NCBI GenBank assembly: GCA_001805645.1
Contig: MHGQ01000041.1
Span: 1-52,614, forward strand
Source: Omnitrophica WOR_2 bacterium RIFCSPHIGHO2_02_FULL_50_17
GTDB lineage: Bacteria > Omnitrophota > Gorgyraeia > Zapsychrales > Zapsychraceae
Length of the DNA stretch: 52,614 bases
Direction: 5' to 3'
Below the pieces are notes generated by a model. It ran no database searches and had not been told where the DNA came from. It saw only the letters and a program-made list of their open reading frames with translations. The position numbers were made by a program, and so were the translations under genes. Each line of letters begins with the position of its first letter. Position 1 is the first letter of the stretch. Shown here piece by piece: positions 6,197 to 26,342 of this stretch.

Positions 6197-6571
6197 TTAA
6201 AGTTTTTTGATCAAATTCCTGATCATCCGCGATTCATGATCAACTTTCTCAAGCAATTCTAATTTTATCGATTGACTGATATAAACTAAATCCTCACATA
6301 TCTCGATTTGTGTCTCCAGTTCGGCACAAGATCCTAAAGCCAAATAGAGAAACTGCCGATATTCTTTGTTATGATACCGGTTGAACCCCTCCGCAATATT
6401 TGATGGAATAGAAATTGCAGCCCTTCGCATTTGCGCGATCAAGGTAAATAACTCTTCTCTAGGGAATTCTCTCGTTGCTGCATAGACCATGCCCACTATC
6501 TTTTTGCCCAATTGCCAGATATCAAGATCCCTGAAATTCTTTATTTTCTGTTTTTCACTGTCCTGATTCAC
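6197..6571 (-). CDS. Four helix bundle protein (23S rRNA IVS protein family / Avd-like), copy A
   Basis: FRDLDIWQ...FPREELFTLIAQMRRAAISIPSNIAEG...FLYLALGSCAELETQ signature. Confidence 0.93.
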   Translation of the reverse strand: MNQDSEKQKIKNFRDLDIWQLGKKIVGMVYAATREFPREELFTLIAQMRRAAISIPSNIAEGFNRYHNKEYRQFLYLALGSCAELETQIEICEDLVYISQSIKLELLEKVDHESRMIRNLIKKL

Positions 6572-10615: not shown

Positions 10616-11976
10616 CACAGAAAAGACCCTAAAGGTCTTGACGCATTGAACAAAGAAAACCTCCTCGCGCTGCTTCCGCGCTGAAGACGGCGGGGGAAAA
10701 ATTTGAAATAATGCGATGCCATACCTAACCCTATTATCCGTATTTGCCCTTTTAACCGCAATAACATGTTTCTTGCTCGGCCTACTCATCGGCATATGCG
10801 GCAAAACCAAATTGCACAGAGTTTGGTCCTTATTTCAATTTTCTGTTGCGGGGTGGGGAGTTCTTGCGTTCTTATAGACTATATCCAAAGACCCAAATAC
10901 TGCTTACGATCTTTGGCGGCTCTCTCATCTCTTTGGAGTTTATATTTCCATATTTTTCTTTCACTCGACGTGTCTTTTCTGCAATTTATCCTATCCAAAA
11001 CTTATTAAAGCATCTTATCTTTATGGTGTGTTAAACAACATAGCGCACACCGCAAATAATGGTCACTTGCTTTTTAAAGAAGAACATGTCAAATATCTTT
11101 TTGATTCCGTATATTATCCTCAAGCCCATGCTTTCAATCTCCTGTTAGCATTAGCACCGTGGATCTTCTTGACAATATTCAGCATGTACCACCTGTATCG
11201 TTATTCAAAAATACACGGAGATAACACGGGCCACCAAGCAAAATTATGGCTTATTATATCAATTTTAGGTTACACGGGTGGTTCCTCAACTTTTTTACCA
11301 ATGCTTGGCATTAACCTTTACCCAAACGCCCTTCTCTTGCTCCCCAGCTACGCGCTTATGCAGACTTATGCTATTTTCAAATACCAATTATTCAACTTAA
11401 GAATTGTTCTAGAAAAAAGCATCATCTATTCTGTGTTGATCGCTATTATATCTATTGCCTATTTAGCCATAGTGCTCACGGCAGAAAAAGTACTGCAAAG
11501 CATACTTGGGTATCAATCTGCTTCCATTAGCCTTTTCGCGGCCTTTGCAATCGGTATCATGGTCATTCCTTTACGCAATAGAATCCAAGCATTATTAGAT
11601 CGGTCTTTGTTTAAAGGAACGCAGCCGGAAATCGCAGCAGAGAATGCATTACTGCGCCAGGAGATCGCGCAGTCGGAAAAGTATAAAACGCTCTCCACGC
11701 TGGCCACGGGCATCGCCCACGAGGTGAAAAATCCGCTCACGGCCATCAAGACATTTTGCGAATACCTGCCCCAGAAGCTCGACGACAAGGAATTTCTCCT
11801 TAAGTTCTCAAGGCTTGTCGGCCGTGAAGTTGACCGCATCGACGGGATGGTCCATGAGCTTCTGGATTACGGGAAACCCGCTCCTCTGTCGCTTAAGGAA
11901 ACAGACATCCAAAGGCTGATCACAGATACGCTGGATATTTTAAGCAATAAATTTCTGGCTCACCATATTACCGTTA

Positions 11977-12011
11977 CCTGCACCCTAGACCCTAAACCCT
12001 GCACCCTAAAA
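11977..12011. repeat. Single-arm heptamer array inside kinase CDS
   Basis: cctgcac cctagac cctaaac cctgcac cctaaaa, translated as CTLDPKPCTLK. Confidence 0.75.
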
Positions 12012-12103
12012 ATAGATCCCACCCGTATCAAACAGGCGCTTCTGAATCTCTTCTTAAACGCCATTGACGCCATGCCGGGGGGAGGGAAATTGACTGTGAC
12101 GAC

Positions 12104-12179
12104 GAGGATTAAAGGAATAAAGGATTATAGGAATAGTGACAACCCCTCTAATCCTCTACCCCTTTATTCCTCTAATCCT
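12104..12179. repeat. Inverted octamer-array hairpin inserted in frame in the HATPase domain
   Basis: aggattaa aggaataa aggattat aggaatag / ccctctaa tcctctac ccctttat tcctctaa tcct; adds RIKGIKDYRNSDNPSNPLPLYSSNP. Confidence 0.85.
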
Positions 12180-12387
12180 GTATTTGAAATCTCCATCCAA
12201 GACACCGGCTGCGGCATCGCCGCCAAAGACCTGCCTCATATCTTCGATCCCTTCTTCACCAAAACCGACCACGGGACGGGCCTGGGGCTGACAATCACCC
12301 GGGGAATCATCGAACAGCACGGCGGGAAGGTGAGTATCCGCAGTCAAGTAGGGGTGGGGACGGAGGTGAGGCTGGAATTCCCGTACA

Positions 12388-12416
12388 GTGACTAGTCGCT
12401 GGTCACTAGGGACTAG
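12388..12416. repeat. Heptamer array, upstream arm of element C
   Basis: gtgacta gtcgctg gtcacta gggacta; contains the kinase stop codon. Confidence 0.8.
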
Positions 12417-12420
12417 AAAA

Positions 12421-12774
12421 ATGGAAATAAAAGATTATAAAGACTTGAAAATCTGGCAAAAAGGAATCGAGCTGGTTAACAAAACTTATTCGATTACCGA
12501 AAAATTCCCTAATAGCGAACTGTATGGTTTAACAAGCCAGATGCGAAGAGCGGCGATTTCGATTCCTTCCAATATCGCTGAAGGATTCGTACGCAAACAT
12601 ACAAAAGAGTACTTCCATTTCTTAACGATATCGTTGGGATCTTGTGCAGAATTGGACACGCAGGTTATTATCGCTGTGGAAAGAAAATATATCAGCAAAG
12701 ACTTATGTGATAATTTTACGAATGAATTATATTACGAAATGCGGATGATAAGCAGCTTACTTAACAAACTATAA
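12421..12774 (+). CDS. Four helix bundle protein, copy C
   Basis: YKDLKIWQKG...FPNSELYGLTSQMRRAAISIPSNIAEG...SLGSCAELDTQ. Confidence 0.93.
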   Translation: MEIKDYKDLKIWQKGIELVNKTYSITEKFPNSELYGLTSQMRRAAISIPSNIAEGFVRKHTKEYFHFLTISLGSCAELDTQVIIAVERKYISKDLCDNFTNELYYEMRMISSLLNKL

Positions 12775-12786
12775 ATATCTTTTTAC

Positions 12787-12814
12787 TAGCGACCAGCCCC
12801 CAGCGACTAGCGAC
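12787..12814. repeat. Heptamer array, downstream (inverted) arm of element C
   Basis: tagcgac cagcccc cagcgac tagcgac. Confidence 0.8.
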
Positions 12815-12817
12815 TGT

Positions 12818-14023
12818 TCAAATCTTCCCCGCCTCATACAGCTCCACCAGGGCATCGACAACGGCCGGATTAAACTGCGTGCCCGTACAGCGCTTAATCT
12901 CAGCCATCGCGGCTTCTTTGCTTAAGCCTTTACGATAGGGACGGTCCGAGGTCATGGCATCAAAGGCGTCGGCAACCGCAATAATGGCCGCCGCCCAAGG
13001 GATATCCTCGCCTTTGAGGCCCTCGGGATAGCCTTTGCCGTCAAAATGCTCATGATGGTATTTGATGCCCTCAAGACATTCCCGCGGTAAGCGAAGGGGG
13101 CCGACCATCTCGCTGCCGCGCACGGTATGCTGTTTCATGACAGCGTATTCCTCGTCGGTCAGTTTACCCTGTTTATTGAGGATGACTTCAGGAATCGCTA
13201 TTTTGCCGATATCGTGCAGAAGAGCGGCGATATAGATACTTTCAAAAAAACTTTCCTCGAACCTCGCCGATCCGCCGGCCCCGCCAACAGCGGGGGTGGC
13301 GGCCATCTGCCGGGCGATCGCCACCGAATATTCCGTGACACGGCCCGTGTGCCCGTGCGTGTAGGCGTCTTTGGCTTCAATCGTCGAGCCTAAGACCTCG
13401 ATTGTCTGCAGGAACAACTGGCGGTTACGCTCCGCCTCGCGCTTTAAACCTTCAAAGAGCTGGGCGTTGCGGATCGCCATCGCCGCGTCCGAGGCGAGCG
13501 CGGCGAAAAAATCCAGCTCCGGCTGTTCAAATTTCGTTCCGTCGTGCTTTTCCCCCAAAAGCAGAATCGCCATCAGCTTATGGCGATAATAGGCCGGCAC
13601 GCAGGCAGCGGTATTGAGCATCTGCATCTGTTCGTCCACCCTGTAAAGAAGCTCTTTGACGGCCTTGCCGTTTCCGTTATGGATGATGCTCTCGCGCCAG
13701 ACGAGGCGGTTGATGTCGTCGGAGACAATCGCGTTGCGGTCTAAAGTCAATGGCCTAAACTCCCTCTGGCTGAAAATTCTAATCAGAGGGCTCTCATGGC
13801 TGAACCGCGTAAAGCCGGGGGGCACTTTCATGCCTATTTCCCCGCGCGAGATATTCAGGACATAAATATCCTTCTTGGGCTCATAAAGGATCATGGCGGC
13901 ATGCTTGATATGGAGCTTGCGGACAATCATGCGGACAATGAGCTTGATCAAGAGCCTCGGGTCATGAATCATGATCATGCCCTTGCTGGCGGTCTCGAGT
14001 TCTTTTTTATAGTCAATCTTCAT
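12818..14023 (-). CDS. GAF + HD-GYP domain cyclic-dinucleotide phosphodiesterase
   Basis: YTHGHTGRV, LLHDIGK, HHEHFDGKGYPEGL, VADAFDAMTSDRPYR; N-terminal GAF. Confidence 0.92.
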   Translation of the reverse strand: MKIDYKKELETASKGMIMIHDPRLLIKLIVRMIVRKLHIKHAAMILYEPKKDIYVLNISRGEIGMKVPPGFTRFSHESPLIRIFSQREFRPLTLDRNAIVSDDINRLVWRESIIHNGNGKAVKELLYRVDEQMQMLNTAACVPAYYRHKLMAILLLGEKHDGTKFEQPELDFFAALASDAAMAIRNAQLFEGLKREAERNRQLFLQTIEVLGSTIEAKDAYTHGHTGRVTEYSVAIARQMAATPAVGGAGGSARFEESFFESIYIAALLHDIGKIAIPEVILNKQGKLTDEEYAVMKQHTVRGSEMVGPLRLPRECLEGIKYHHEHFDGKGYPEGLKGEDIPWAAAIIAVADAFDAMTSDRPYRKGLSKEAAMAEIKRCTGTQFNPAVVDALVELYEAGKI

Positions 14024-14024
14024 T

Positions 14025-14155
14025 GAAAAAGGTTGGAAGACGTTGCAAGAGGTTGGAAAATGTTAGAAGAGGTTACAGTCCTTAACCTGTTCCTAACCTC
14101 TTAACCTTTCGAAACCTTTTCTAACCTCTTGTAACCTTTTCTAACTTTTAACTAA
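14025..14155. repeat. 'Empty' inverted decamer-array hairpin of the same family as element B, with no ORF
   Basis: gttggaagac gttgcaagag gttggaaaat gttagaagag gttacag / ...ctttcgaaac cttttctaac ctcttgtaac cttttctaac; shares caagaggttggaaaatgtt with 9575-9593. Confidence 0.88.
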
Positions 14156-14511
14156 CGCTTTAACTCTGCAAGTACAATCTTCTCCAGCTCCTCCAACACC
14201 AGCGGCTTGTGGATATATCCTCTCACGCCGTAAGCATTAGCCATGTTCATCGTCTCTTCGTCCTCGACGCCGGTCACCATAATGACTTTGGTGTCGCTGC
14301 CCTTGTCGCGAAGCTCTTTAAGGACATCCACACCGTTCATCTGCTCCATGCGCACGTCCAGAAGGACCAGATCCGGCTTTTCCTTGTCGATAATCTCCAG
14401 CGCCTCCTGCCCGCCGCTGGCGGTAAAGACGTCAATCTGACGTTTGGCGAAAAACCGCCGGGCGAACTCCCGGATGTCCATTTCGTCGTCGACAATGAGT
14501 AATTTGGGCAT
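14152..14511 (-). CDS. Single-domain response regulator (REC)
   Basis: MPKLLIVDDE...PDLVLLDVRM...VIMVTG...YIHKPL. Confidence 0.95.
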   Translation of the reverse strand: MPKLLIVDDEMDIREFARRFFAKRQIDVFTASGGQEALEIIDKEKPDLVLLDVRMEQMNGVDVLKELRDKGSDTKVIMVTGVEDEETMNMANAYGVRGYIHKPLVLEELEKIVLAELKR

Positions 14512-14528
14512 GATTGTACTCCCTTTCA

Positions 14529-14561
14529 AGACTATAGACTATAGACGATAGACCATAGACT
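14529..14561. repeat. Heptamer array, downstream arm of element D
   Basis: agactat agactat agacgat agaccat agact. Confidence 0.85.
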
Positions 14562-14566
14562 TGGGT

Positions 14567-14926
14567 TTACAATTCCCGCTTTACGGCTTCAATGAGACCA
14601 AACAAAGTCTTTGCGACCTCTTGCTTTTGTTCCTCGATTCTGCCAAATAATTCGTCTCTCAAATAACCCAATTTATTGGCTAAATGAAGAAGATATTCTG
14701 TTTCAGCGAGCGATGCTCTGGCCACATATAAAAACTGCAAATAATCTTTTTGATGCTGTCTGCTGGCGCCTTCGGCGATATTGGTCGGGACGGACACAAC
14801 TGCCCGGCGAAGCTGAGATGTCAGTCCGTAAAGCTCCTCTTTCGGGAACTGCTGGGTCACTTTGTAAATCTCAACGGCAAAATCATCCGCCAATTGAAAC
14901 GCTTTAATACTCTTGTAATTTCTCAT
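14567..14926 (-). CDS. Four helix bundle protein, copy D
   Basis: MRNYKSIKAFQLA...FPKEELYGLTSQLRRAVVSVPTNIAEG...ARASLAETEYLL. Confidence 0.93.
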   Translation of the reverse strand: MRNYKSIKAFQLADDFAVEIYKVTQQFPKEELYGLTSQLRRAVVSVPTNIAEGASRQHQKDYLQFLYVARASLAETEYLLHLANKLGYLRDELFGRIEEQKQEVAKTLFGLIEAVKREL

Positions 14927-14949
14927 CACTGTCTTCTCTATCAACCACC

Positions 14950-14977
14950 GGTCTATGGTCTATTGTCTATGGTCTAT
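14950..14977. repeat. Heptamer array, upstream (inverted) arm of element D
   Basis: ggtctat ggtctat tgtctat ggtctat; contains the stop codon of the upstream kinase. Confidence 0.85.
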
Positions 14978-17145
14978 GTCGCTATAGGTAAAACCAGCCT
15001 CGTCCGCGAGCCTTCTTTGTATTCCGACGTAAATTCCACCTTCCCCTGGTGGTTTTCCTCAATGATTTTCCTCATCACATACAACCCCAGACCCGTTCCC
15101 TTTTTGCTGGAAAGTTTCGTCGTAAAAAACGGCGTAAAGAGCTTATTAATATCCTGCGGCCTGACGCCGATGCCGTTGTCGCTAAGGAGAATCTCCAGGT
15201 TCTGGCCGTTGGAATGAGCCGTGATTTCCAGCCTTCCTTTGTAACCAGGCTCCTTGAATTCCTCCTGCCTCTCCATCATGGCATCATAGGAGTTGTCGAT
15301 GATATTGAAAAAGACCTCCTGAAGCTGCGTAAAATTTCCGTGAACCGGCGGGACCGCGTGGTCGAAATTCCGGACGATGTCGATGCGGTTGAGTTTAATC
15401 TTAAACTGGACCATCTCCAGCGAGGCATCCAGGAGCTTGTTGAGGTCAACGGCGCCAAAGCCCTCCTCGGGCTTGCGGGAATATTTCAACAGCCCCTCGA
15501 CGATCTCGCCGCCTCGTTTGACGTTGTCCTGAATCCTGTCCAGCGAATGCTCGATTTCTTCCAGAAGTTCGCGCGTCTCCGGCGGCAACGGGTCTTTTTT
15601 TTTGAGCCGGATGGTGTCCACCGCGTCCCCGGCGATAAAGCCCATCGCGTGCAGGCGGTTGTTGATCTGGTGCGAGAGTCCGTCAGCCATGGTCCCGATG
15701 GTGGCCATCTTCTCGGCCTTGATAAGCTGTTCGTGCGTCTTTTTCATCTCCTCGTAAAACTGAGCGTTTTCGATGGCCAATGCCGCCTGATTGGCGAGAA
15801 TGGAGAACACAATCAAGTCATCGTGGCTGTATAACTTCCCGGATTTTTTCTTTCCCAGCGCGATAAAGGCAATCAGACGCTCATCCATGAAGCTCGGGAC
15901 AATCAACGCCGCCTGCAGGTCTTCCATGACCTTTCCAATTTCGGCTAAAGCCTCGTCCTTAAAATCCACACTGCGCTGTTTGACCTCATCGTAAACCAAA
16001 GGCTCGCGGTGTTTCTGCAGATGCTGAATCAAAACGGCGTCGCCGGCAATGACACCACTCCTTCGGTCGCCTCCTATGCCCTTGGAGGCCTTCAAGACGA
16101 ACTGACTGGAAGATTCATGGAAAAGATAAATGATGCTGTGCTCGATTTTGACCGTCCGCGTCACGATATGGACGATCAGATTCAGCAGTTTTCCAAGCTC
16201 CTTGACCCTTCCCATCCCGAGTGATGCCCGGCGCAGGGCCGCCTGATAGCGCCTCTGCTCCTGCAAGAGCCGGTCTTCTGCCTTGCGCTGGATGAACAAA
16301 TAGATTGACGGCCCGACGGTGGCCAGGACAGTCGAGCTGATCAACGGCGCCAGCCACCACATCTCTCCCATTAAACTTTTCAACTGCTCCCGCCAGCCGA
16401 AGGCAAGGACAAAAGGAATGCCAAGAACAAATGAATAAATAACAAAAAAAATACTAGTACGTGTTACCGCGACACTAACATCCATTAACCTATACTTTAT
16501 AATCGCATAAGCAAATATTATAGGTAATTGAACTAAAAAAATAAACCCTAGAGGGAAAAGAGATATTCCATAGTTTGGAATAAAATCCACACTGCCAAAA
16601 GACGCTATAATAGATCCCAAGAGAACATATTTAGTTTTAGATAACTGGATAAGGTTTCTTTCTTTTAGAAGATTCAGGACAAGATCGACAAATCCAGCTG
16701 TAAAAAGTCCGATAAAAAAACATAAAAACAGTGGATGCATTTTTATGTTTGCCTGAGGGTAATAACCCCAAGAATAATGATAAAGATCGGCTATCAATAA
16801 GGGGGTAAAATATAAAAAATAAAGAAAGATTATTCCACCCACCCAGAAAAGACTCTGTAATAATCTAATTCTTTGTTTATTTAAAAATGTAGCTATAAAT
16901 TCGTAGAATGTTACCGGGATGAATATAATCCCTGCAAAACCCATCTTAAAAGCAATTAGCATATGGCTAATATCACTTATTCTGCTCGCCAAAGCATAAC
17001 TTATAAGCCAAATAAAAATAGCTATCGTTAACTTCAGAAATGCCCTATTTATTGATGAATTCTTATTCTTGACAAATGTGAGGATTCCAAATCCCAGAAC
17101 AAAAAAGGCAGCGAACACTCGAAGGGCATAAATAAGAATAGCCAT
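14974..17145 (-). CDS. 7TM-sensor + GAF histidine kinase
   Basis: About 9 hydrophobic N-terminal helices, GAF, LSHQINNRL H-box, NIIDNSYDAM, DNGIG, GTGLGL. Confidence 0.92.
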   Translation of the reverse strand: MAILIYALRVFAAFFVLGFGILTFVKNKNSSINRAFLKLTIAIFIWLISYALASRISDISHMLIAFKMGFAGIIFIPVTFYEFIATFLNKQRIRLLQSLFWVGGIIFLYFLYFTPLLIADLYHYSWGYYPQANIKMHPLFLCFFIGLFTAGFVDLVLNLLKERNLIQLSKTKYVLLGSIIASFGSVDFIPNYGISLFPLGFIFLVQLPIIFAYAIIKYRLMDVSVAVTRTSIFFVIYSFVLGIPFVLAFGWREQLKSLMGEMWWLAPLISSTVLATVGPSIYLFIQRKAEDRLLQEQRRYQAALRRASLGMGRVKELGKLLNLIVHIVTRTVKIEHSIIYLFHESSSQFVLKASKGIGGDRRSGVIAGDAVLIQHLQKHREPLVYDEVKQRSVDFKDEALAEIGKVMEDLQAALIVPSFMDERLIAFIALGKKKSGKLYSHDDLIVFSILANQAALAIENAQFYEEMKKTHEQLIKAEKMATIGTMADGLSHQINNRLHAMGFIAGDAVDTIRLKKKDPLPPETRELLEEIEHSLDRIQDNVKRGGEIVEGLLKYSRKPEEGFGAVDLNKLLDASLEMVQFKIKLNRIDIVRNFDHAVPPVHGNFTQLQEVFFNIIDNSYDAMMERQEEFKEPGYKGRLEITAHSNGQNLEILLSDNGIGVRPQDINKLFTPFFTTKLSSKKGTGLGLYVMRKIIEENHQGKVEFTSEYKEGSRTRLVLPIAT

Positions 17146-17147
17146 GG

Positions 17148-18278
17148 CTAATGATATCTTTTGACAAATAAATCTCTATATGTATTAAGTTCTTCCCGAC
17201 TATAAAGCCGCCCGTGGAAAGAAAATCCCGCCAATCCAAATCCATTTCGATTGCTTAAATCTCGGATTTCTAGAATATTAGCTTCAGTTATTTCGCCGCG
17301 ATTAATTGAAAAATTTTTACGCGCTCTTTCAAAACCTAAGGCGAGACCTTCTGCGACACATCCATAAATTGAATTGTCTCTAACAAAATTTAACCATTTT
17401 TTATTGCTACTATGACAATTAATTGTCGTTGCACGCCCCCCATCAAATGCAAAAATATCTTTCCTCCGGACAGTAAAATCATCGGTTAAGTTATAAGGCA
17501 ATGAAACATCACAAATTATTGAATATGGTTTAATATCCACAGGGTTTATAAGAGGGATAAAAGAACTGGTTGCCAACAAAACAACTTCAGCGTGTTTAAT
17601 TGCTTTACTGGAGTCATTCTCGATTGTTATTTTATCATTTAAAAAACTTATCTCCCTCACTACGGGGTCATCCTGTCGGATATTCCTTGAACACAAAATA
17701 ATTTTCCGAAATTTTTTTGCTAAAATTTTTGCACAAATACTTCCAATATCTCCCGTAGCTCCCACTATGCTTATGGTCAAATTTGCTGGGTTTACTTCTA
17801 GCCATTGGGAGGCTTCTAAAACACCCTCAATTGCAAGCGCCGCCGTAAGCGTATTGCCACTGGTTATGACAACATTGTTATTTCTTACAATTTCTGATAG
17901 ATATTGCTCATCATTGCAGGCTATAGAAGTAAATCCTGTCAACACAATAATTTGAGCTCCTTTCCTTATTGCATATTTTATTGCATTTAAAACTTTTTTA
18001 AGAGCCATCTCCTTATTAACTACTACTTCTTCTGGGAATACCCCACACATTATTCCAAGAACGTCTATTTTAAAATTCAGTGCGGATTTTAAATTGTGAA
18101 CGCACATAAAATTGTGTGGAGGTAGTTTTTGAAAACACTTCTTTACAATCTGTGGAGAGAGTTGATTCAAAAGCCACGCTATTAAACTGTCAAACGGAGA
18201 ATAAAAAAAAGTTTTTTCCTTAAACTCACTGACATTCATCGGATGGAGCACAAACGCAACTTTTTTTAAATTCGTCAT
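17148..18278 (-). CDS. Long-chain acyl-ACP reductase-like NAD(P)-dependent oxidoreductase (COG5322-like)
   Basis: TSGNTLTA, IVGATGDIGS, DGG, YGCVAE (Cys equivalent to AAR FACFAE) and NFS.NRG...GF motifs, as in cyanobacterial AAR. Confidence 0.75.
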   Translation of the reverse strand: MTNLKKVAFVLHPMNVSEFKEKTFFYSPFDSLIAWLLNQLSPQIVKKCFQKLPPHNFMCVHNLKSALNFKIDVLGIMCGVFPEEVVVNKEMALKKVLNAIKYAIRKGAQIIVLTGFTSIACNDEQYLSEIVRNNNVVITSGNTLTAALAIEGVLEASQWLEVNPANLTISIVGATGDIGSICAKILAKKFRKIILCSRNIRQDDPVVREISFLNDKITIENDSSKAIKHAEVVLLATSSFIPLINPVDIKPYSIICDVSLPYNLTDDFTVRRKDIFAFDGGRATTINCHSSNKKWLNFVRDNSIYGCVAEGLALGFERARKNFSINRGEITEANILEIRDLSNRNGFGLAGFSFHGRLYSREELNTYRDLFVKRYH

Positions 18279-18284
18279 ATGTTT

Positions 18285-19523
18285 CTAAATCGCCTGTTTC
18301 TTAAATGTTAAACACGTATTATTCCCCCCAAACGCCTGTGAATTATTCAAAACAATTTTTATCTTATGTTTTCGCCCTTTGTTCGGCACGCAATCGATGT
18401 CACACTCAGGGTCTTTGGTCTCGTAATTGATCGTCGGCGGGAGTTCGCTGTTTTTGATGGCCAGGCAGCAGGCAATTGTCTCCAGCGCCGCCGAGGCCCC
18501 CATGGTATGGCCCAGCATGGATTTGATGGAGCTCATGGGGATCTCGCCGGCCCGTTTGCCGAATACCCTGTAAACGGCCGCACATTCCGCCCGGTCATTG
18601 ACCTTTGTCCCGGTCCCGTGGGCGCTGATGTAATCCACATCGCTGATATCCACCGCCGAGGCCTGTAAAGCCTTCCGCATGGCCTTGCAAATACCATCAA
18701 CAGACGGTTCCGTCATATTGCCGGCATTGCAGGACATGCCATAGTCGAGGACCTCCGCGTAAATGGGCGCTTTTCGTTTTAAAGCGCCCTCCAGCGTCTC
18801 CAGGAAAACCATTCCCGCCCCTTCCCCGGGGACCATGCCGGTACGGTTTTTATCGAACGGCCGGCATTTATCCGTGGCCACATTCAGCAAACGGCAAAAA
18901 CCGCTGTAGACAGTGCGTGAGAACGCTTCAGCACCGCCGCTTAAGGCAAAATCCACCCGGCCCAACCGAATAAGGTCTGCGGCATAACCGACAGCATAAC
19001 TCCCCGAGGCGCAGGCGTTCGTAAACACGCTATTCTCACCGTTGAGATTAAGCTCCAAGGAAACATTCCCGCTTAAACCGTTGACCGGAAACCCCAAAAA
19101 GTATTTATTGTCAACAGAAAGACAGTGCGCGTCCATCTTAAGATCATCAAAACGCTCCAATATATTACTCTCACCAGCCGTTGTCCCGATCATGACCGCG
19201 GTTGTGTGCTTTGAAAGGGTGCGGTGGTTCATTTTTGCGTCATCCATGGCCAGTTTGCTGGCGGCAATGGCCAGTTGCGAGGCGCGGCCGATTTTCTCGG
19301 CTTTTTGCCGGCGCATAAAATCCTCCGGATGAAAATCCTTGACCTCTCCGCCGATGTGGCAACTGTGCGAAGACGTGTCGAAGGCCGTGACCGGGGAGAT
19401 CCCCGACTTGCCCGCCATAATATTCTTCCAGAACTCCTGCCAGCCGATGCCCAAAGAGGAGATGACCCCGAGGCCGGTGACGACGACGCGGCGATTTGAA
19501 TTCTGATCAGTGGATTTTATCAT
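18285..19523 (-). CDS. fabF: Beta-ketoacyl-ACP synthase II-like (active KS)
   Basis: VVVTGLG, NACASG (catalytic Cys), AHGTGT, KSMLGH, AFGG. Confidence 0.88.
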   Translation of the reverse strand: MIKSTDQNSNRRVVVTGLGVISSLGIGWQEFWKNIMAGKSGISPVTAFDTSSHSCHIGGEVKDFHPEDFMRRQKAEKIGRASQLAIAASKLAMDDAKMNHRTLSKHTTAVMIGTTAGESNILERFDDLKMDAHCLSVDNKYFLGFPVNGLSGNVSLELNLNGENSVFTNACASGSYAVGYAADLIRLGRVDFALSGGAEAFSRTVYSGFCRLLNVATDKCRPFDKNRTGMVPGEGAGMVFLETLEGALKRKAPIYAEVLDYGMSCNAGNMTEPSVDGICKAMRKALQASAVDISDVDYISAHGTGTKVNDRAECAAVYRVFGKRAGEIPMSSIKSMLGHTMGASAALETIACCLAIKNSELPPTINYETKDPECDIDCVPNKGRKHKIKIVLNNSQAFGGNNTCLTFKKQAI

Positions 19524-19590: not shown

Positions 19591-20043
19591 TCAATCCCGC
19601 CTCAAGCTATAAAAAATCTGAATATCCGCTATTGTTTCTTCTTTTACGCAAACACGCACGTCCATATACCCGCCGGTCTTAAGCGCCCGGCCGGAAAGCG
19701 TCTTTAAAACGACCTGATCACCGGCGTAGACGGAGCGGACAAACTCGGCCTTCACCTGCCCTAGAAAAATTCTCGAGGCCGATGCTAAACTTTCCTCATG
19801 CGTCAGCCTGTAAAACAAAATCGCCGCCTGCGCCGCGGCTTCCAGAAGCAATGTCTCGGGAAAGACGCTGGATTGCCATTGTGGGTTGGCGAACATCCAC
19901 TCATTGGCGGTGATATTCTTGACGGCCGTGAGGCTCTCTCCCTTTTTAAATTCAATCACCCGGTCAATCATAACAAACGGGTACGCCTGCGGCAGGATCC
20001 GGGCGATGTCCCTGTGATCAAGGCAAGCCGCCGCTTCCCTCAC
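19591..20043 (-). CDS. FabZ/FabA-like hotdog dehydratase homolog (catalytic His motif degenerate)
   Basis: ILPQAYPFVMIDRV...AVKNITANE...LLLEAAAQ; GTG start overlaps the upstream TGA (GTGA). Confidence 0.8.
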   Translation of the reverse strand: MREAAACLDHRDIARILPQAYPFVMIDRVIEFKKGESLTAVKNITANEWMFANPQWQSSVFPETLLLEAAAQAAILFYRLTHEESLASASRIFLGQVKAEFVRSVYAGDQVVLKTLSGRALKTGGYMDVRVCVKEETIADIQIFYSLRRD

Positions 20044-21287
20044 GCGCACCGCCCCAGGACCATGCAGCAGTTGCTGCCGTTGGGCCCAAAAGTTATGACA
20101 AGCGCCTTGTCGACTTTTGCCGGTCGCGACTGGTTCGGGACATAATCCAGGTCGCAGTCCGGGTCCGGTTCGTTTAAATTCACCGTCGGCGGGACAAACC
20201 CCTCCCGCAGAACCCCCACCGCCGCCGCGGCCGCAAACGCCCCCGAGACGCTGTAACATTCTCCGGTCATGGACTTGATGGAACTGACCGGGATCTCGTA
20301 AGCGCGCTTGCCGAAGACTTCTTTGATGGCCTCGGTTTCGATTTTATCCGCGGCCACGGTCGAGTTGGCATTGGCACAGATATACCCGATGTCCTGCGGC
20401 TCCACCCCGGCGTTTTCCAGCGCGTTTCTCATCGCGGCCTTCACCCCGGTCCCGGCCGGGTTATATTTATGAAGGCGAAATGGATCAAAATAATACCCGA
20501 ACCCGAGGACCTCGCCTAAAATCTGCGCCTTGCGGCTGCGCGCGTGTTCATAATCCTCCATCGCCAGAAGGCATGCCCCTTCGCCGAAGGTGACCCCGTT
20601 GCGCCGCCGGTCAAAGGGGCAATTGACGAACGCCCCGCCGTTGGTGCCGGATAAAAATTTGAGCGCATGAAAACCCTCGAAGGTGAGCTCACACATCTCC
20701 TCCACCCCGCCGGTAAAAATGAGTTTGGCGCGCTCCATCTGCAAAAAGTCATACGCGTAGCTCATCGCGTCCAGACTGGCCGTGAAACCGGTGGAGATCG
20801 TGGTATTAAACCCTTGAATATTGTTCCAGATGGAAACCTGGCTGGCGGGGGAATTGATGACGGTATTGGGAAAAAGGGCGGGGTTAACGTAACGGGGGCC
20901 TTCCTTCAAGGTCACCATGTCAAAATCGCTGATGCTTTTGATGCTTCCCAGGGTCGTCCCGACGGAAACACCCACATCGTCCGTGTTTTCCTCCGTAATG
21001 GTAAAGCCGCTGTCCGCAATGGCTAGCTTGGAGGCGGAAACCAGAAGCTTGGTGCTGCGGTCGAGGGTCCGCAGGCCCTTGGGGCCCATATAACGCACGG
21101 CGTCGAAATCGCTGATCTCACCGGCGACATTCACCGAAAACCGGTCGGTGGGAAACAGCGTCACGGGACGGTAACCGATCTTCCCGTCTTTAAGCGCCTG
21201 CCAGAATTCCTTCCTGCCCTGTCCGGTGCTGGCCAGGATCCCCAGGCCTGTAATCACCACCCGCTTATCGGCCGGTGAGTTGCTCAT
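20040..21287 (-). CDS. Ketosynthase homolog lacking catalytic triad (chain-length-factor-like)
   Basis: KS fold, but STGFTASL (Cys to Phe), CANANST (His to Asn), KSMTGE (His to Glu). Confidence 0.85.
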   Translation of the reverse strand: MSNSPADKRVVITGLGILASTGQGRKEFWQALKDGKIGYRPVTLFPTDRFSVNVAGEISDFDAVRYMGPKGLRTLDRSTKLLVSASKLAIADSGFTITEENTDDVGVSVGTTLGSIKSISDFDMVTLKEGPRYVNPALFPNTVINSPASQVSIWNNIQGFNTTISTGFTASLDAMSYAYDFLQMERAKLIFTGGVEEMCELTFEGFHALKFLSGTNGGAFVNCPFDRRRNGVTFGEGACLLAMEDYEHARSRKAQILGEVLGFGYYFDPFRLHKYNPAGTGVKAAMRNALENAGVEPQDIGYICANANSTVAADKIETEAIKEVFGKRAYEIPVSSIKSMTGECYSVSGAFAAAAAVGVLREGFVPPTVNLNEPDPDCDLDYVPNQSRPAKVDKALVITFGPNGSNCCMVLGRCA

Positions 21288-21317: not shown

Positions 21318-21572
21318 CTATTTGTTGATAATCTTGGCAACGATTTCGACGGTCTTGTTCAAACTGGTAAATTTGCTCAGTTGCTCCTCGGGAATCACGA
21401 TCTTGTATTTCTTCTCGATTCCCGCCAGGATTTCCAGCGCCATCATCGAGTCCATGCCTAAATCCGTTGTGAACTGCGCATCATCGCTGATTTTTTCGGC
21501 GTCGGATTCGATAATCTCGGCGATCATCGCCCGGATATCTTCCTTGACATCAACAGCCGACTTCAATTTCAT
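21318..21572 (-). CDS. Acyl carrier protein
   Basis: DLGMDSMMALEI phosphopantetheine site; acidic, 84 aa; AAGGAGG RBS. Confidence 0.92.
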   Translation of the reverse strand: MKLKSAVDVKEDIRAMIAEIIESDAEKISDDAQFTTDLGMDSMMALEILAGIEKKYKIVIPEEQLSKFTSLNKTVEIVAKIINK

Positions 21573-21788: not shown

Positions 21789-21818
21789 ATTATAGTGCCC
21801 AAGCGCGGCGGGGGTCAA
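21789..21818 (-). promoter_or_regulatory. sigma70 promoter of the ACP-KS-reductase-kinase operon
   Basis: Minus strand TTGACC-18 bp-TATAAT. Confidence 0.6.
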
Positions 21819-22161: not shown

Positions 22162-22836
22162 TCAATATCCTGCGGCGTGCGGATGTTGAGGCAAGGCCTG
22201 CTCCAGAGAGGCTGCTTCTTTTTTCAATCTTATATTATCCTCTTTGAGAACGGCGAGTCTTTGGTGAATCCAATCCCTGCTGTCGGGCAATTGGTGTTTG
22301 AGCGCCGTCTGCCTTTGCCTGAGGTGCTCGATCGTCTTTAAAGGCTGGGCGCTCTCTTTTTCCATCCTCGCCAAATCTTCTTGCGCCTTCCGGACATTTC
22401 TTCGGCTTTGCCGGACAGAAACCAAAAGGGCATTCCCTTGTCCCTTCGACAGCCTGGGCGACGCGCCTGCCGATACCATCCCCGTCTTGGCCTGCAAGCG
22501 GGCAATGTCCGCCTGAAGGGCTTTTATTTTCACGTCCACATCTTCTTTCCTGCCCGTCTCCACCGGCCCGCCCTGTTCTCTTTTTCTTAACAATGCGTGC
22601 TTCCTGGCCTCCAAAAACTTTAACTCCTCGTCCAGAGATTGGATGTGTTTCTCGTAACCAGTGATTTCCGAGGCAAGAAAATCATTTTTATCCGCCAGAT
22701 TCCGGAAGCTCTCCTTAAGGCCAGCGAGGCTCAACTCCAGCATGGCCTCGGCGGAGCCGTGCGGGGATGTCTGGGCAAAGCCGGGATGCGTGAGCGCGCC
22801 TATAAAAATGACCGTTAATAAATATTTCTTCATCAT
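22162..22836 (-). CDS. Hypothetical secreted coiled-coil protein
   Basis: Signal peptide, heptad-rich sequence, coupled to the pilC stop. Confidence 0.7.
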   Translation of the reverse strand: MMKKYLLTVIFIGALTHPGFAQTSPHGSAEAMLELSLAGLKESFRNLADKNDFLASEITGYEKHIQSLDEELKFLEARKHALLRKREQGGPVETGRKEDVDVKIKALQADIARLQAKTGMVSAGASPRLSKGQGNALLVSVRQSRRNVRKAQEDLARMEKESAQPLKTIEHLRQRQTALKHQLPDSRDWIHQRLAVLKEDNIRLKKEAASLEQALPQHPHAAGY

Positions 22837-24044
22837 TATAAGATCTGAACAATCGTGAGAATGGGCAAGAAAAGCGCAATAACGATAAATCCAATGACTA
22901 CGCCTAAGAACCCAATCACCAGCGGCTCGATGATGCTGGTAAGCCCATCCACCGCGGCATCGACCTGATCGTCATAGAATTCGGCAATCTTCAGAAGCAT
23001 CTTTTCCATCTGCCCCGTTTTCTCGCCGATGCTGATCATCCGCGTCACCATCGGCGGGAAAACCCCGCTTTTAATGAGCGGCCCCGCCAGGCTCTCCCCC
23101 TCGCGCACGCTTCCCTTGACCTCGTCAATGACTAGTTCCAGGACGCGGTTTCCGATCGTCTTTCCGACAATCTCCAGGGATTCCAGGATGGGAACGCCGC
23201 TCTGGATGAGGGTGGCCAAGGTGCGGCTGAAACGGCTGATAGCGACCTTGCGCATCAATTCGCCGAAAATCGGTATCCTCAAAACAGCCCGGTCAATAAC
23301 GAGCGCCCCTTTTTCGGTCTTATGCCACTGCCTGAGAAAAACGATAATCGCGGCGGCGCCGGCGACAAACCACAGCAAATGATGCTTGAGGGCATCACTT
23401 ACGGTCATGAGCATCTGTGTCATGGCCGGCAGATCCCGGCCGAAGGAATCATAGATGCCCTTAAAGGTCGGCACGACCTTAACCAAAAGGACGACCGTGA
23501 TGATAATCGCCATGGAAACAACGACCATGGGATACATAAGAGCCGCTTTCACCTTACGCTTCAGGCGCAGAATCTTTTCCAAATACGACGAGATACGGTC
23601 CAGAATCGCGCTCAACACCCCGCCGGTCTCGCCGACCTTAATCATGTTGACAAAAAGACCGTCGAAGACGTTGGGGTGCTTGGCGAAGGCCGCGGAAAGG
23701 CTGCTTCCGCTCTGGATATCATCACGGACACTGATGAGGACTTTTTTGAACAAGGGGTGGGTCACCTGATCCTGGAGGGCGTCTAACCCCTGGATGATGG
23801 GAATCCCGGCATCCACCATGGTGGCTAATTGGCGCGTGAAAATCACGATTTCATCCGCTTTGACCTTTTTGCTTCTGAAGGTGCCGCGTCTGCCGCTCAC
23901 TCCTTCTTTGATCTCGGCAAGCGAGATAATGACCAGCTGGCGCTTGCGAAGCTCCTCGATAACGGCGACCTTGCTCTCCGCCGCAATCTTACCGCCTACG
24001 GTGCGGGAATCCTTATTTTTGGCGACATATCTAAAGGTGGGCAT
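22836..24044 (-). CDS. pilC: Type IV pilus/T2SS inner-membrane platform protein (PilC/GspF)
   Basis: FTRQLATMVDAGIP, GETGG, RFSRTLATLIQSGVPI, GEKTG, IEP motifs. Confidence 0.93.
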   Translation of the reverse strand: MPTFRYVAKNKDSRTVGGKIAAESKVAVIEELRKRQLVIISLAEIKEGVSGRRGTFRSKKVKADEIVIFTRQLATMVDAGIPIIQGLDALQDQVTHPLFKKVLISVRDDIQSGSSLSAAFAKHPNVFDGLFVNMIKVGETGGVLSAILDRISSYLEKILRLKRKVKAALMYPMVVVSMAIIITVVLLVKVVPTFKGIYDSFGRDLPAMTQMLMTVSDALKHHLLWFVAGAAAIIVFLRQWHKTEKGALVIDRAVLRIPIFGELMRKVAISRFSRTLATLIQSGVPILESLEIVGKTIGNRVLELVIDEVKGSVREGESLAGPLIKSGVFPPMVTRMISIGEKTGQMEKMLLKIAEFYDDQVDAAVDGLTSIIEPLVIGFLGVVIGFIVIALFLPILTIVQIL

Positions 24045-24543
24045 CTGAATCGTTCTCAGGAGGCTCTAGGCCATACCAGCGGTCAATGGCCGTCTCAATT
24101 TCCCGGCGGGTGGCGATAAAGGGGGCGACCTTACAATGCGTATGGCGGCGCACATGCGTCTTGACGAAAGTATCAAAGGGATTCAGCATCACAAGGCTTA
24201 AAATATCCCCTACCCGGTCAAGAGGGATCACGCGGTGGCGGCAGACAACCTCACGGGGAACAAGCTGAAGGACGTTTCTGTCAATCTCATAACGGTCAAT
24301 GGCAATGTAGGGAATGTTGCACTGGACGACCAAAGCGGCAACAATATCCCGGTCATCGACAAACTTAAACCCGATGAGGATCTCGCCGATATAACCGCCT
24401 TTTTCCTTCTGAATCTTCAAAGCCTGATTCAACTGAAGGCGGGTAATCCTCTCGCGGTCGATGAGGATTTCCCCCAGGAGCCGTTTTTTGGGTGTCGCAT
24501 CGATTTCATCGACGGTCATCTCACACCTCAGCGTCATAGGCAA
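24031..24543 (-). CDS. Stand-alone MshEN/GspE N-terminal domain protein
   Basis: RLLGEILIDRERIT..QLNQALKIQ...IGEIL; no ATPase domain. Confidence 0.8.
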   Translation of the reverse strand: MPMTLRCEMTVDEIDATPKKRLLGEILIDRERITRLQLNQALKIQKEKGGYIGEILIGFKFVDDRDIVAALVVQCNIPYIAIDRYEIDRNVLQLVPREVVCRHRVIPLDRVGDILSLVMLNPFDTFVKTHVRRHTHCKVAPFIATRREIETAIDRWYGLEPPENDSDAHL

Positions 24544-24626
24544 CTTTTACGGTGTTATCCATTGAAAATTCTATCATAAAATACGGCTCACAGATAAGAA
24601 AACACAAAAAAATGCGGCCAACCCCT

Positions 24627-26336
24627 TTATTCGCTGGTTGTCACCCGAAGGACCTCCTCCAGCGTGGTCTCCCCTGAGACACACTTTTCCATGGCATCCT
24701 CCCACAACGTCGCCATGCCCTTCTCTTTTTGCGCATAACGCTTGATATCGTCCGAAGATTTCCCGTTCAAGAGCATCTCCCGCACCGTGTCGTCAATATC
24801 CAAAACCTCTACGATGCCCATCCGTCCGCGGTAGCCGGTCTGACGGCAGGCCTCACATCCCTTGCCGTGGTAAAAGACGGTCCCCGCTTTGAATTTATAA
24901 TCCAGCCGGCCGAGGACATCTTTGGGGATCTCTAAGGGTTGTTTGCACTGTTCGCAAATTTTGCGGCATAGGCGCTGGGCGCTCACCAGGATTAAGCTGG
25001 AGGCAACCAGAAACGGCTCTACCCCCATGTCCACCAGCCGCGTGAGAGCCCCGGCGGCATCATTGGTATGAAGAGTCGAGAGCACCAACTGTCCCGTCAA
25101 AGAGGCCTTGATGGCGACATCGGCGGTCTCATTGTCGCGGATCTCGCCGACCATCACGACATCCGGACTCTGCCGCAAGATGGCGCGTAACCCTTCGGCA
25201 AAGGTCAATCCGATTTCCGGACGGGTATGAATCTGCGTGAGGCCGTCCACCAAGTATTCCACCGGGTCCTCGACCGTAACGATATTCTTATCCACCGTAT
25301 TCAGGACATTGAGGACAGAGTAAAGGGTGGTGGATTTGCCGCTTCCCGTCGGACCGGTGACCAGAATCATCCCAAAAGGCTTCTTCACGGCCTCCTGCAT
25401 GATCTTGAGAGGCTCTTCCGTAAAACCCAGCCCTTCCAGTCCGGCGGAAAGATTGGCCTTGTCCAAGATGCGCATAACGACCTTTTGCCCGAACGTCGTC
25501 GGAAGAATGGAAACGCGAAAGTCGACCTCCCGGCTGACAATCCGCAGCTTGAACCTGCCGTCCTGCGGCAGATGAATACACGTAATGTCCAGACGGGACA
25601 TAATCTTGAGGCGCACAATAATCGCATTCTGGTTTTCCTTGGGGATTTCCAGGATGTCCTGCAGCACCCCGTCGATGCGGTAACGCACCCGCATCCCCTC
25701 GGAGGCAGGCTCCATATGGATATCAGAGGCCCTCTGCCTTAAGGCCTCCTTGATAATCAGATTCACCATCCGTATGATCGGGGCCCTCTCGCTTTCGTCA
25801 ACCACATTATCCGTGTCCAGGCCGTGCTCCTGTTCGCTCACAATTTCGAATTCGCCGGCTTCGATATCCTTGCTGATATCCGCAACGCTGGCGGCCTTCG
25901 GCTCGCCGTAGTATTCGTCGAGGGCCTTGGCGATTTCCTCGCTCGTGCTCATGACGGCCTCGATCTCTTTACCGGTGATATTCTTCAAATCGTCGATGGC
26001 AAAGACGTTGAGGGGATCAGAAAGGGCAACGGTCACAGAATTTTCCAGGGACGAAAGGGGAATGATGCGGTATTGACGGGCCACGCGCTCCGGGATGATT
26101 TCCTTTAATGAGGGGTCGATCTTATATTTGCCTAAATTAATAAAAGGGATATTGAGCTCCCGCACCAACAGGACCAGGAGATCCTTCTCACTCACCAGTC
26201 CCTTCTCGATGAGCGCCTTGTCCAGGCTGATGCCCTTGCTCTTCTGCAAAGCAACCGCCTCATCGATATCCTTCTGTTTAAGATGCTGCGACCTGATCAG
26301 AGTCTTCAGAACTTTGTCTTTGAGCGTCTCAGGCAT
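24627..26336 (-). CDS. pilB: Type IV pilus assembly ATPase PilB/GspE family (paralog 2)
   Basis: ASDIHMEP, GPTGSGKST, LRQSPDVVMVGEIRD, STLHTND, tetra-Cys. Confidence 0.9.
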   Translation of the reverse strand: MPETLKDKVLKTLIRSQHLKQKDIDEAVALQKSKGISLDKALIEKGLVSEKDLLVLLVRELNIPFINLGKYKIDPSLKEIIPERVARQYRIIPLSSLENSVTVALSDPLNVFAIDDLKNITGKEIEAVMSTSEEIAKALDEYYGEPKAASVADISKDIEAGEFEIVSEQEHGLDTDNVVDESERAPIIRMVNLIIKEALRQRASDIHMEPASEGMRVRYRIDGVLQDILEIPKENQNAIIVRLKIMSRLDITCIHLPQDGRFKLRIVSREVDFRVSILPTTFGQKVVMRILDKANLSAGLEGLGFTEEPLKIMQEAVKKPFGMILVTGPTGSGKSTTLYSVLNVLNTVDKNIVTVEDPVEYLVDGLTQIHTRPEIGLTFAEGLRAILRQSPDVVMVGEIRDNETADVAIKASLTGQLVLSTLHTNDAAGALTRLVDMGVEPFLVASSLILVSAQRLCRKICEQCKQPLEIPKDVLGRLDYKFKAGTVFYHGKGCEACRQTGYRGRMGIVEVLDIDDTVREMLLNGKSSDDIKRYAQKEKGMATLWEDAMEKCVSGETTLEEVLRVTTSE

Positions 26337-26342
26337 ATCTTT

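Follow-up and report, generated by a model that had tools for sequence, protein, structure and literature searches.

An AT-rich block of about 2 kb is set into a putative signalling operon on the 52,614-nucleotide contig MHGQ01000041.1 of Omnitrophica WOR_2 bacterium RIFCSPHIGHO2_02_FULL_50_17, in the following called the window (it is an entire 52.6-kb contig of a 1.92-Mb metagenome-assembled draft genome, which comprises 77 contigs and is 93% complete). The single, tightly packed operon lies on the minus strand and encodes an acyl carrier protein (ACP), a ketosynthase-fold protein (KS1), a FabZ-like dehydratase, a second ketosynthase (KS2), a reductase, a histidine kinase, a 23S rRNA intervening-sequence (IVS) protein, a receiver (REC) and an HD-GYP protein. 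We establish here the block and its junctions within KS2 and the kinase gene, the mosaic history of the locus, the variety of enzymes that occupy the position of the reductase (the slot) in related loci, and the linkage of slot enzyme class to the kinase sensor. On balance, we favour the reading that this locus is a ligand-and-receptor signalling operon based on a lipid or polyketide and equipped with a recombining specificity cassette. The features on which this rests are the following:

16411 to 18372, minus strand: AT-rich cassette, consisting of the KS2 tail, the reductase gene and the kinase seven-transmembrane (7TM) sensor; GC content at third codon positions (GC3) 0.281
18360 to 18384: left composition junction, within KS2 (2-lnL support interval)
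16396 to 16420: right composition junction, within the kinase, about 30 codons into conserved protein sequence (2-lnL support interval)
18285 to 19523, minus strand: KS2, a FabF-like ketosynthase with intact Cys-His-His, predicted to be active (alignment and domain/profile matches)
17148 to 18278, minus strand: reductase, 376 amino acids (PigE model, E 4.5e-40; acyl-ACP reductase (AAR) model TIGR04058, 94 bits; both below cut-off)
14974 to 17145, minus strand: kinase, 723 amino acids (HisKA_7TM, GAF, DHp and HATPase domains)
16411 to 17145, minus strand: kinase sensor part, residues 1-245, HisKA_7TM and part of the following conserved transmembrane stretch (PF16927)
14974 to 16410, minus strand: conserved kinase core, residues 246-723, with transmembrane/linker, GAF, DHp with H-box, and HATPase (Pfam GAF_3 and HATPase_c)

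A preliminary description of the window, made by eye, had placed an AT-rich block at 16420-18370, extending from the last 25 or so ketosynthase codons through the reductase and the 7TM sensor, with both breakpoints inside genes and a return to GC-rich sequence in the GAF/kinase core. All of this is borne out. The GC content in 300-nt windows falls from 0.55 to 0.31-0.39 (at about 16400-18400) and returns to 0.58, while all other 1-kb bins of the window have a GC content of at least 0.419; in 30-codon windows, GC3 changes from 0.73-0.83 to 0.17-0.40 and back to 0.70-0.80, with little change in GC1 and GC2. A two-change-point likelihood fit on GC3 of seven operon genes (the IVS-protein gene was excluded) delimits the block at KS2 codon 384 (nt 18372) and kinase codon 245 (nt 16411; likelihood ratio test statistic, LRT, 354), with a GC3 of 0.281 in the block (652 codons) versus 0.699 outside it (1943 codons). 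The AT-rich portion of KS2 is its last 29 codons, the gaps flanking the reductase gene measure just 6 nt and 2 nt, and the kinase breakpoint lies just past the 7TM region. Genome-wide, no 1950-bp window has a lower GC content (rank 1 of 8911; genome mean 0.500, standard deviation 0.032). Because the change is found at GC3 and is thus synonymous, amino acid composition is not the cause of the dip. A codon usage habit of membrane proteins is ruled out as well by PilC, a polytopic membrane protein of the window with a GC3 of 0.71, and by the kinase-like open reading frames (ORFs) of the genome, only 2 of 16 of which show an intragenic GC3 step (the operon kinase, LRT 133, and a neighbouring one, LRT 24; LRT of the other 14 at most 11). 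Among contigs from sequencing runs other than the probable source of the genome, a lone contig of run X6 matches KS2 and leaves the window sequence at 18379, the left composition junction; it may stem from an allele present alongside that of the window and differing in the KS2 tail or the cassette, but is a hint no more. Further non-source contigs match KS2 and then diverge at 18411 and 18442 (run X6) and at 18605 and 18638 (run X4).

Comparison with related loci of the phylum indicates that the block and its surroundings have different histories. The nearest sampled backbone is that of locus L039, whose KS1, KS2, kinase residues 246-300 and HD-GYP protein are 83%, 78%, 80% and 79% identical to those of the window, respectively, and whose KS2 3' part shows 85-92% nucleotide identity over most of window nt 18650-18380 (approximate limits). 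L039 also has an AT-rich block between KS2 and the kinase core (L039:4050-6150, GC content 0.27-0.37), where the encoded proteins are a methyltransferase and a sensor that shares just 29% identity with its counterpart in the window. Similarly, the block of L030 (kinase core 74%, HD-GYP protein 77% identical) encodes a non-homologous enzyme, an SDR thioester reductase (PF07993, E 2e-53), together with a sensor of 34-42% identity. For reductase and sensor, the nearest sampled relative of the window is L082, to which the sensor is 50% and residues 246-300 are 58% identical; versus L030 and L039 these values are 34% and 29% for the sensor and 85% and 80% for residues 246-300. The nearest relative of the window thus switches exactly at the kinase junction, a switch that is seen only in KS2 and in kinase residues 246-300. 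The kinases of the window and L039 agree in 100% of residues 264-283, yet GC3 over this segment is 0.85 in the window and 0.25 in L039, the step being located at codon 245 in the window and at codon 287 in L039. The left junction is common to both loci, with AT-rich KS2 tails that are 82% identical at the nucleotide level, and it therefore either predates the difference between reductase and methyltransferase or reflects a later crossover at the very end of KS2.

The same pattern recurs throughout the family. Database kinases with 96-98% identical cores (residues 246-723) have sensors that are just 23-41% identical; in 15 database pairs whose cores are nearly identical, the loss of identity sets in at residues 212-286, and one pair is 100% identical from about residue 286 onward and 32% identical on the N-terminal side. 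Sensor identity is essentially uncorrelated with core identity (r 0.10), the sensor median being about 25% in each band of core identity, including that of 95-100%. At the DNA level, L103 and L106 are 90% identical over about 9.9 kb from about kinase codon 213 on, and upstream of it similarity is undetectable; L064 and L067, which belong to one genus, have flanks that are mostly 71-76% identical (66% at the dehydratase/KS2 edge) with almost nothing alignable in between, and in L067 a GC-rich remnant of the old KS2 5' end precedes a complete AT-rich KS2. In approximately unbiased (AU) tests, for which pairs were picked by pairwise identity and not from trees, the sensor data reject the kinase sister pairs L103 and L106 (p-AU 3e-4) and L044 and L048 (p 1e-7), and the KS2 data reject a pairing of the window with L082 (p 4e-5) and group the window with L039. 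Crossovers vary among loci and fall within conserved protein sequence; a search for direct or inverted repeats flanking the block, as expected for site-specific recombination, retrieved just short AT-rich chance matches. An identity drop confined to the block and incongruent histories of its parts, both anticipated in the preliminary description, are thus present, and the idea that the cassette is swapped as a unit by recombination in conserved flanks is largely supported by the mosaic histories, the crossover positions and the linkage of slot and sensor described below. With GC3 changing and identity dropping in the block, the observations differ from those expected of a dip caused by amino acid composition and of uniform identity across the operon.

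The cassette is part of a larger family. A scan of species-representative genomes for relatives of the kinase core yielded 247 confirmed stretches, the best 80 of which were kept for loci, and a metagenome scan contributed 8 loci. Gene maps show a common chassis across the Omnitrophota, with FabH-FabD or ACP-KS1 followed by dehydratase, KS2, the slot, the 7TM/GAF kinase, REC and HD-GYP. In 59 loci that contain a full-length kinase preceded by 1.3 kb or more of sequence, we defined the slot gene as the longest ORF on the same strand that ends beside the kinase start; it was present in 58 of them. Grouped by BLAST clusters, these genes fall into 13 classes, and the alternative tailoring enzymes that had been suspected at this position do exist:

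SDR thioester reductase (NAD_binding_4): 11 loci
AAR-like reductase: 10 loci
S-adenosylmethionine-dependent (SAM) methyltransferase: 8 loci
divergent KS-like protein: 8 loci
FAD amine-oxidase-like protein: 6 loci
type I polyketide synthase (PKS): 5 loci
hotdog thioesterase: 3 loci
AfsA: 2 loci
HAD, GMC oxidoreductase, nitroreductase, GDSL lipase and unknown: 1 locus each

AfsA is a known family of autoinducer synthases. Slot genes have a median GC3 of 0.28 (interquartile range 0.26-0.32), compared with 0.55 for the C-terminal side of the kinase (range 0.28-0.85); slot GC3 correlates with GC3 of the sensor side (r 0.83) and weakly with that of the kinase C-terminal side (rho 0.27). An intragenic GC3 step (difference above 0.15, LRT above 30) is present in 36 of the 59 independently assembled loci, at residues 195-302 in 26 of them. 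Six loci (L041, L049, L051, L080, L085, L109) have an extra 7TM kinase of about 540 amino acids between KS2 and the slot enzyme, and cassettes can therefore carry a second receptor. Fusions of an AAR-like reductase with an SRPBCC/START-like domain (about 520-530 amino acids) are encoded in loci L050, L094 and L110 and found among database proteins P0055-P0119; they adjoin other 7TM kinases in many Omnitrophota and constitute a second architecture of the AAR-like enzyme.

Similarity of the sensor tracks the class of the slot enzyme, and similarity of the kinase does not. The slot class is the same in all 8 locus pairs with a sensor identity of at least 50% and in 26 of 38 pairs at 40% or above (background 11%); among pairs with a kinase identity of at least 70% this applies to 15 of 116. 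The fewest class changes required on the sensor tree are 21 (shuffled mean 40.7; reached in none of 500 shuffles) and on the kinase tree 37 (shuffled mean 40.8; reached in 16 of 500), shuffle counts which overstate significance because related loci are not independent.

This non-independence is one of several points that weigh against the signalling interpretation or narrow its basis. Neighbouring genes are expected to be transferred together, and linkage alone is therefore no proof of matched specificity. When loci of the same slot class are compared, the correlation of enzyme identity is r 0.34 with that of the sensor and r 0.31 with that of the kinase (one near-identical pair removed); fine-scale co-divergence of enzyme and sensor within classes, weak and no stronger than that with the kinase, is thus not used as support here. 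As to the classes themselves, Pfam scans covered 16 slot or cassette proteins of related loci and the other members were assigned by their BLAST cluster. A clear GC3 step is absent in 23 of the 59 loci, and in 10 of the 36 with a step it is located at residues 351-465, hence the exchanged tract sometimes takes in the GAF domain. Kinase residues 470-723 do not reject the window and L082 as sisters (AU test, p 0.655), and this part of the protein is therefore uninformative on the swap of the window itself. The near-universal AT-richness of the cassette is not accounted for by our interpretation. Finally, the chemistry, the sensing of the operon's own product, the action between cells and the wiring from REC to HD-GYP are components that we infer.

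A different view of the same exchange is that the cassette recombines but has no role in cell-to-cell signalling. The operon would then tailor envelope lipids, its 7TM kinase would monitor the own membrane in a feedback similar to that of DesK, or a surface lipid, and pressure by phages or predators would diversify the block, as happens at O-antigen and capsule islands, which are typically low-GC accessory loci. The slot enzymes are indeed of generic lipid-tailoring types (reductases, methyltransferase, FAD oxidase, thioesterase, PKS), the sensor is embedded in the membrane, the block combines AT-richness with high turnover, type IV pilus genes adjoin the operon, and an export gene was not seen among the nine operon proteins scanned. 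However, it is not obvious why a homeostatic sensor should change with the class of the enzyme, yet the sensor tracks the slot class; moreover, AfsA-family synthases occur in the slot, and the genome has housekeeping fab genes apart from the synthase set of the operon. We therefore regard this explanation as rather unlikely, though worth serious consideration.

Far less probable are explanations that dispense with exchange. A fast-evolving, weakly constrained region might have drifted to AT in place by mutation bias, and it is true that many lineages show the same dip and that the block corresponds roughly to the region in which the kinase is least conserved (in 91 homologues, pairwise identity averages 0.19-0.33 up to residue 210 and 0.53-0.65 from residue 211). 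Yet the GC3 step lies some 30 codons within conserved sequence and at different codons in the window and L039 (245 versus 287) where their amino acids are identical, the slot is filled by non-homologous genes, the nearest relative switches at the junction, AU tests reject congruence between the parts, and kinases that are 100% identical from about residue 286 differ completely in the sensor. Drift in place is already contradicted by these observations, and we give it very little credence. The chance that the block is an assembly or binning chimera of two organisms with different GC content is negligible. It is true that the genome is a metagenome-assembled draft in 77 contigs and that the junctions are both situated in conserved stretches, a setting in which assemblers can cross over. 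Yet the KS2 junction is spanned by X3 record 6, X4 record 13 and X8 record 26, and the kinase junction by X4 record 11 and X3 record 4; these contigs come from several studies and from runs other than the source, and they are identical to the window except for one difference (X4 record 13); a gap in the cover of run X8 at 16262-16388 and short X6 pieces carry no evidential weight. In addition, reading frames are intact, and the pattern is repeated in the 36 of 59 other assemblies with a step, including L067, which resides on a 3.36-Mb single-contig chromosome. Just as improbable is hypervariability of the sensor through mutagenesis by a diversity-generating retroelement, for which nearby IVS proteins would be the Avd-like component: the IVS protein gives a sub-threshold bAvd-like match and the genome encodes a reverse transcriptase, but the only one found is located on another contig (C42), the variable tract of about 2 kb includes whole non-homologous genes with composition shifts at all bases, and a search for a template-like repeat of the region found none.

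The remaining parts of the operon are, in order of transcription:

21789 to 21818, minus strand: promoter-like site preceding the ACP gene (consensus match only, at 11 of 12 positions)
21318 to 21572, minus strand: ACP, 84 amino acids, with the phosphopantetheine-site motif DSM (PF00550, E 6e-14)
20040 to 21287, minus strand: KS1, ketosynthase fold (Pfam ketosynthase N- and C-terminal domains)
19591 to 20001, minus strand: FabZ/FabA-like hotdog dehydratase (PF07977, E 4e-14; FabZ models below cut-off)
14534 to 14977, minus strand: IVS-protein gene (14567-14944) and bracketing inverted repeat (PF05635, E 9.5e-37)
14152 to 14529, minus strand: stand-alone REC (PF00072, E 1.3e-29)
12818 to 14023, minus strand: predicted HD-GYP phosphodiesterase with a weak GAF-like N-terminal part (PF13487, E 3.8e-36)

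The dehydratase ORF as listed extends to 20259 and overlaps KS1. In an alignment with KS2 and the genome's own FabF, KS1 lacks the Cys-His-His triad and has Thr, Asn and Glu at those columns; it is probably an inactive partner of KS2. In the ketosynthase/chain length factor pairs of type II PKS, an active ketosynthase is joined by a ketosynthase-fold partner whose catalytic Cys is classically replaced by Gln. Here KS1 has Thr at the Cys column and KS2 the complete triad, and KS1 is missing in many relatives. KS2 is only 39% identical to the genome's own FabF, which is encoded in an acpP-fabF pair on contig C2; this pair rules out KS2 as the housekeeping FabF and, together with fabH-fabD on contig C61, likewise separate from the operon, indicates that the synthase set of the operon is dedicated. 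REC is 62-78% identical in most relatives and 49-57% in the most distant loci. The HD-GYP protein exceeds the cut-off of the HD_5 domain by far (124.8 versus 27.2 bits) and contains the HD and HHEHFDGKGYP motifs, from which its activity is predicted.

Alignments to the structures 6jzq (AAR) and 4ppm (PigE) match the reductase over residues 82-366 and identify the NAD(P)-binding glycine motif GATGDIG at residue 173 as well as Cys307, which is aligned with a Cys of both chains that we take to be the acyl-accepting nucleophile of AAR. Scores are below the curated cut-offs (TIGR04058, 94.3 versus 449.7 bits; PigE, 137.7 versus 850 bits), and judged by these similarities the reductase is a distant member of the AAR/PigE N-terminal domain superfamily. 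At E ≤ 0.001, 14 of 61 relatives have a homologue, and at E ≤ 1e-20 one is encoded by 19 of 168 genomes of the order. The kinase belongs to the HisKA_7TM sensor kinases, its N-terminal 7TM region scoring 47.6 bits with PF16927 (gathering threshold 28.6) and its core showing HATPase_c (E 1.5e-22) and a visible H-box; the core is 58-76% identical to more than 100 database clusters.

Interpreted as a signalling operon with a specificity cassette, the locus would function as follows. The dedicated ACP, the inactive partner KS1, the FabZ-like dehydratase and KS2 would assemble an acyl or enoyl chain of short or medium length on the ACP, and the slot enzyme would set the head group of the released product. 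In the window the slot enzyme is presumably an NAD(P)H-dependent thioester reductase of the AAR/PigE N-terminal type; as such an enzyme reduces the thioester, an aldehyde would be released. The adjoining kinase may sense this lipid with its membrane-embedded 7TM module, upon which the GAF-kinase core would phosphorylate REC, and REC would act on or with the HD-GYP enzyme and thereby change the level of cyclic di-GMP (c-di-GMP). Slot enzyme and sensor would form one AT-rich unit, traded between Omnitrophota lineages by homologous recombination, and crossovers in the conserved KS2 and kinase arms would generate many enzyme/sensor variants on one chassis. That these variants represent signal 'dialects', i.e. 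do not cross-react, is plausible.

Several known systems resemble this locus in part. According to PMC6334282, the poorly conserved block of ComQXPA in Bacillus subtilis comprises the gene for the signal-modifying enzyme, the signal gene and the 5' end encoding the kinase sensor, the remainder of the kinase is conserved, and strains form communication groups. Like ComQXPA, the variable block in the window combines the gene of a tailoring enzyme with the 5' end of a multi-pass kinase gene, where the sensor is encoded, and has its edges within genes; unlike it, the block lacks a peptide pheromone gene, the presumed signal being a lipid or polyketide made on an ACP, the slot holds non-homologous enzyme families instead of alleles of one enzyme, and the output is REC and HD-GYP instead of ComA. 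Furthermore, exchange is seen across families of a phylum and bears a strong AT-rich signature, and any specificity groups are putative. In staphylococcal agr, a hypervariable segment between conserved flanks takes in a portion of the processing enzyme, the gene for the signal and that half of AgrC which forms the sensor; its signal is a peptide thiolactone, with four allelic groups within a species. The block of the window is similarly a variable unit of synthesis enzyme and sensor in conserved flanks, but agr has neither a fatty-acid-type synthase nor replacement of enzyme families. The agr-like synthase/receptor cassette of the preliminary description therefore holds with respect to genetic architecture; the locus itself lies outside the agr and com families, because the block encodes the KS2 tail, the reductase and the sensor only and no peptide precursor, and by our analysis the resemblance is in how the locus works. 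In DSF/Rpf of Xanthomonas (RpfF, RpfC, RpfG), a signal derived from a fatty acid is combined with a sensor kinase that crosses the membrane several times and with an HD-GYP c-di-GMP phosphodiesterase as output, and the window shares the presumed lipid signal, the membrane kinase and the HD-GYP output. It differs in that the nine operon proteins scanned include no RpfF-type crotonase, the kinase has 7TM and GAF modules and no fused REC or histidine phosphotransfer domain, and REC and HD-GYP are separate proteins; we know of no swapping cassette in Rpf. Finally, GATGDIG and the aligned Cys are shared with cyanobacterial AAR and the PigE N-terminal domain, but the reductase of the window has neither a partner aldehyde-deformylating oxygenase nor an aminotransferase domain and is encoded in a signalling operon. 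Our searches of the literature on Omnitrophota histidine kinases, polyketides, quorum sensing, two-component systems and c-di-GMP retrieved no account of this locus. Judged by title and abstract, none of the papers listed on quorum sensing in the Omnitrophota concerns it, and PMC13641062 names the phylum in the reference list only. Papers found on HisKA_7TM, as far as their accessible parts indicate, deal with archaeal and eukaryotic kinases, and nothing relevant was found on the sequence composition of agr.

The IVS-protein gene at 14567-14944 is an insertion between kinase and receiver, bracketed by a 27-nt inverted repeat (14534-14560 and 14951-14977; 93% complementary) with short tandem units. 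The window holds three such genes (14534-14977, 12388-12820, 6278-6556), the second of which (12388-12774) has a weaker 26-nt inverted repeat (77%), and relatives have IVS-protein genes at varying intergenic positions of the same operon; the varying positions and inverted repeats suggest small mobile cassettes. In L039, two small genes of 97 and 111 amino acids are inserted in a lower-GC stretch between KS1 and the dehydratase (L039:1693-2339) and look by eye like a toxin-antitoxin pair of the HigB/HigA kind. The reverse-transcriptase match of the genome (C42:22878-23402, minus strand) adjoins another low-GC island (C42, around 24001). A paralogous kinase gene converges on the operon:

11028 to 12395, plus strand: paralogous kinase (HisKA and HATPase), GC3 step 0.41/0.64 at codon 208

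Just upstream of it, an 80-amino-acid membrane-like ORF is ended by a stop (region 10766-12395, plus strand), and the kinase gene may therefore be split or contain a frameshift; at the corresponding place, relatives encode an intact 7TM kinase of about 540 amino acids together with a receiver. Type IV pilus/type II secretion genes immediately upstream of the operon (22836-28112, minus strand) were recognized by eye, among them a PilC-like platform protein and two PilB-like ATPases; this set is a possible target of the c-di-GMP output.

Hypervariable synthase/receptor loci, the textbook basis of bacterial pherotypes, are to our knowledge known for peptide signals in Firmicutes. The locus described here has the corresponding organization, with a variable block of tailoring enzyme and kinase sensor part, conserved flanks, edges within genes, and relatives that are close in the core (or, for L103 and L106, in flanking DNA) and differ in the block. 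It would thus represent the same genetic logic in an uncultured phylum and with lipid or polyketide chemistry, where whole non-homologous enzymes swap together with the sensor. It also shows cleanly how recombination junctions within genes can be recognized by composition alone, and it raises the question why the exchanged pool keeps a GC3 near 0.28 regardless of host composition. As a natural library of enzyme/sensor pairs on one kinase chassis, the family makes the ligand specificity of 7TM histidine kinases directly testable, and the pairs could serve as orthogonal signalling parts. More tentatively, and as a possibility that we hold with some reserve, the Omnitrophota may maintain a phylum-wide pool of AT-rich cassettes, comprising at least 13 enzyme classes each with a matching 7TM sensor, which are traded across genera and families through the ketosynthase and kinase core as arms and without an integrase. 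Each lineage might thereby gain a private lipid signal and receptor controlling c-di-GMP, for the recognition of kin or of partners, the cells being very small and possibly dependent on a host.

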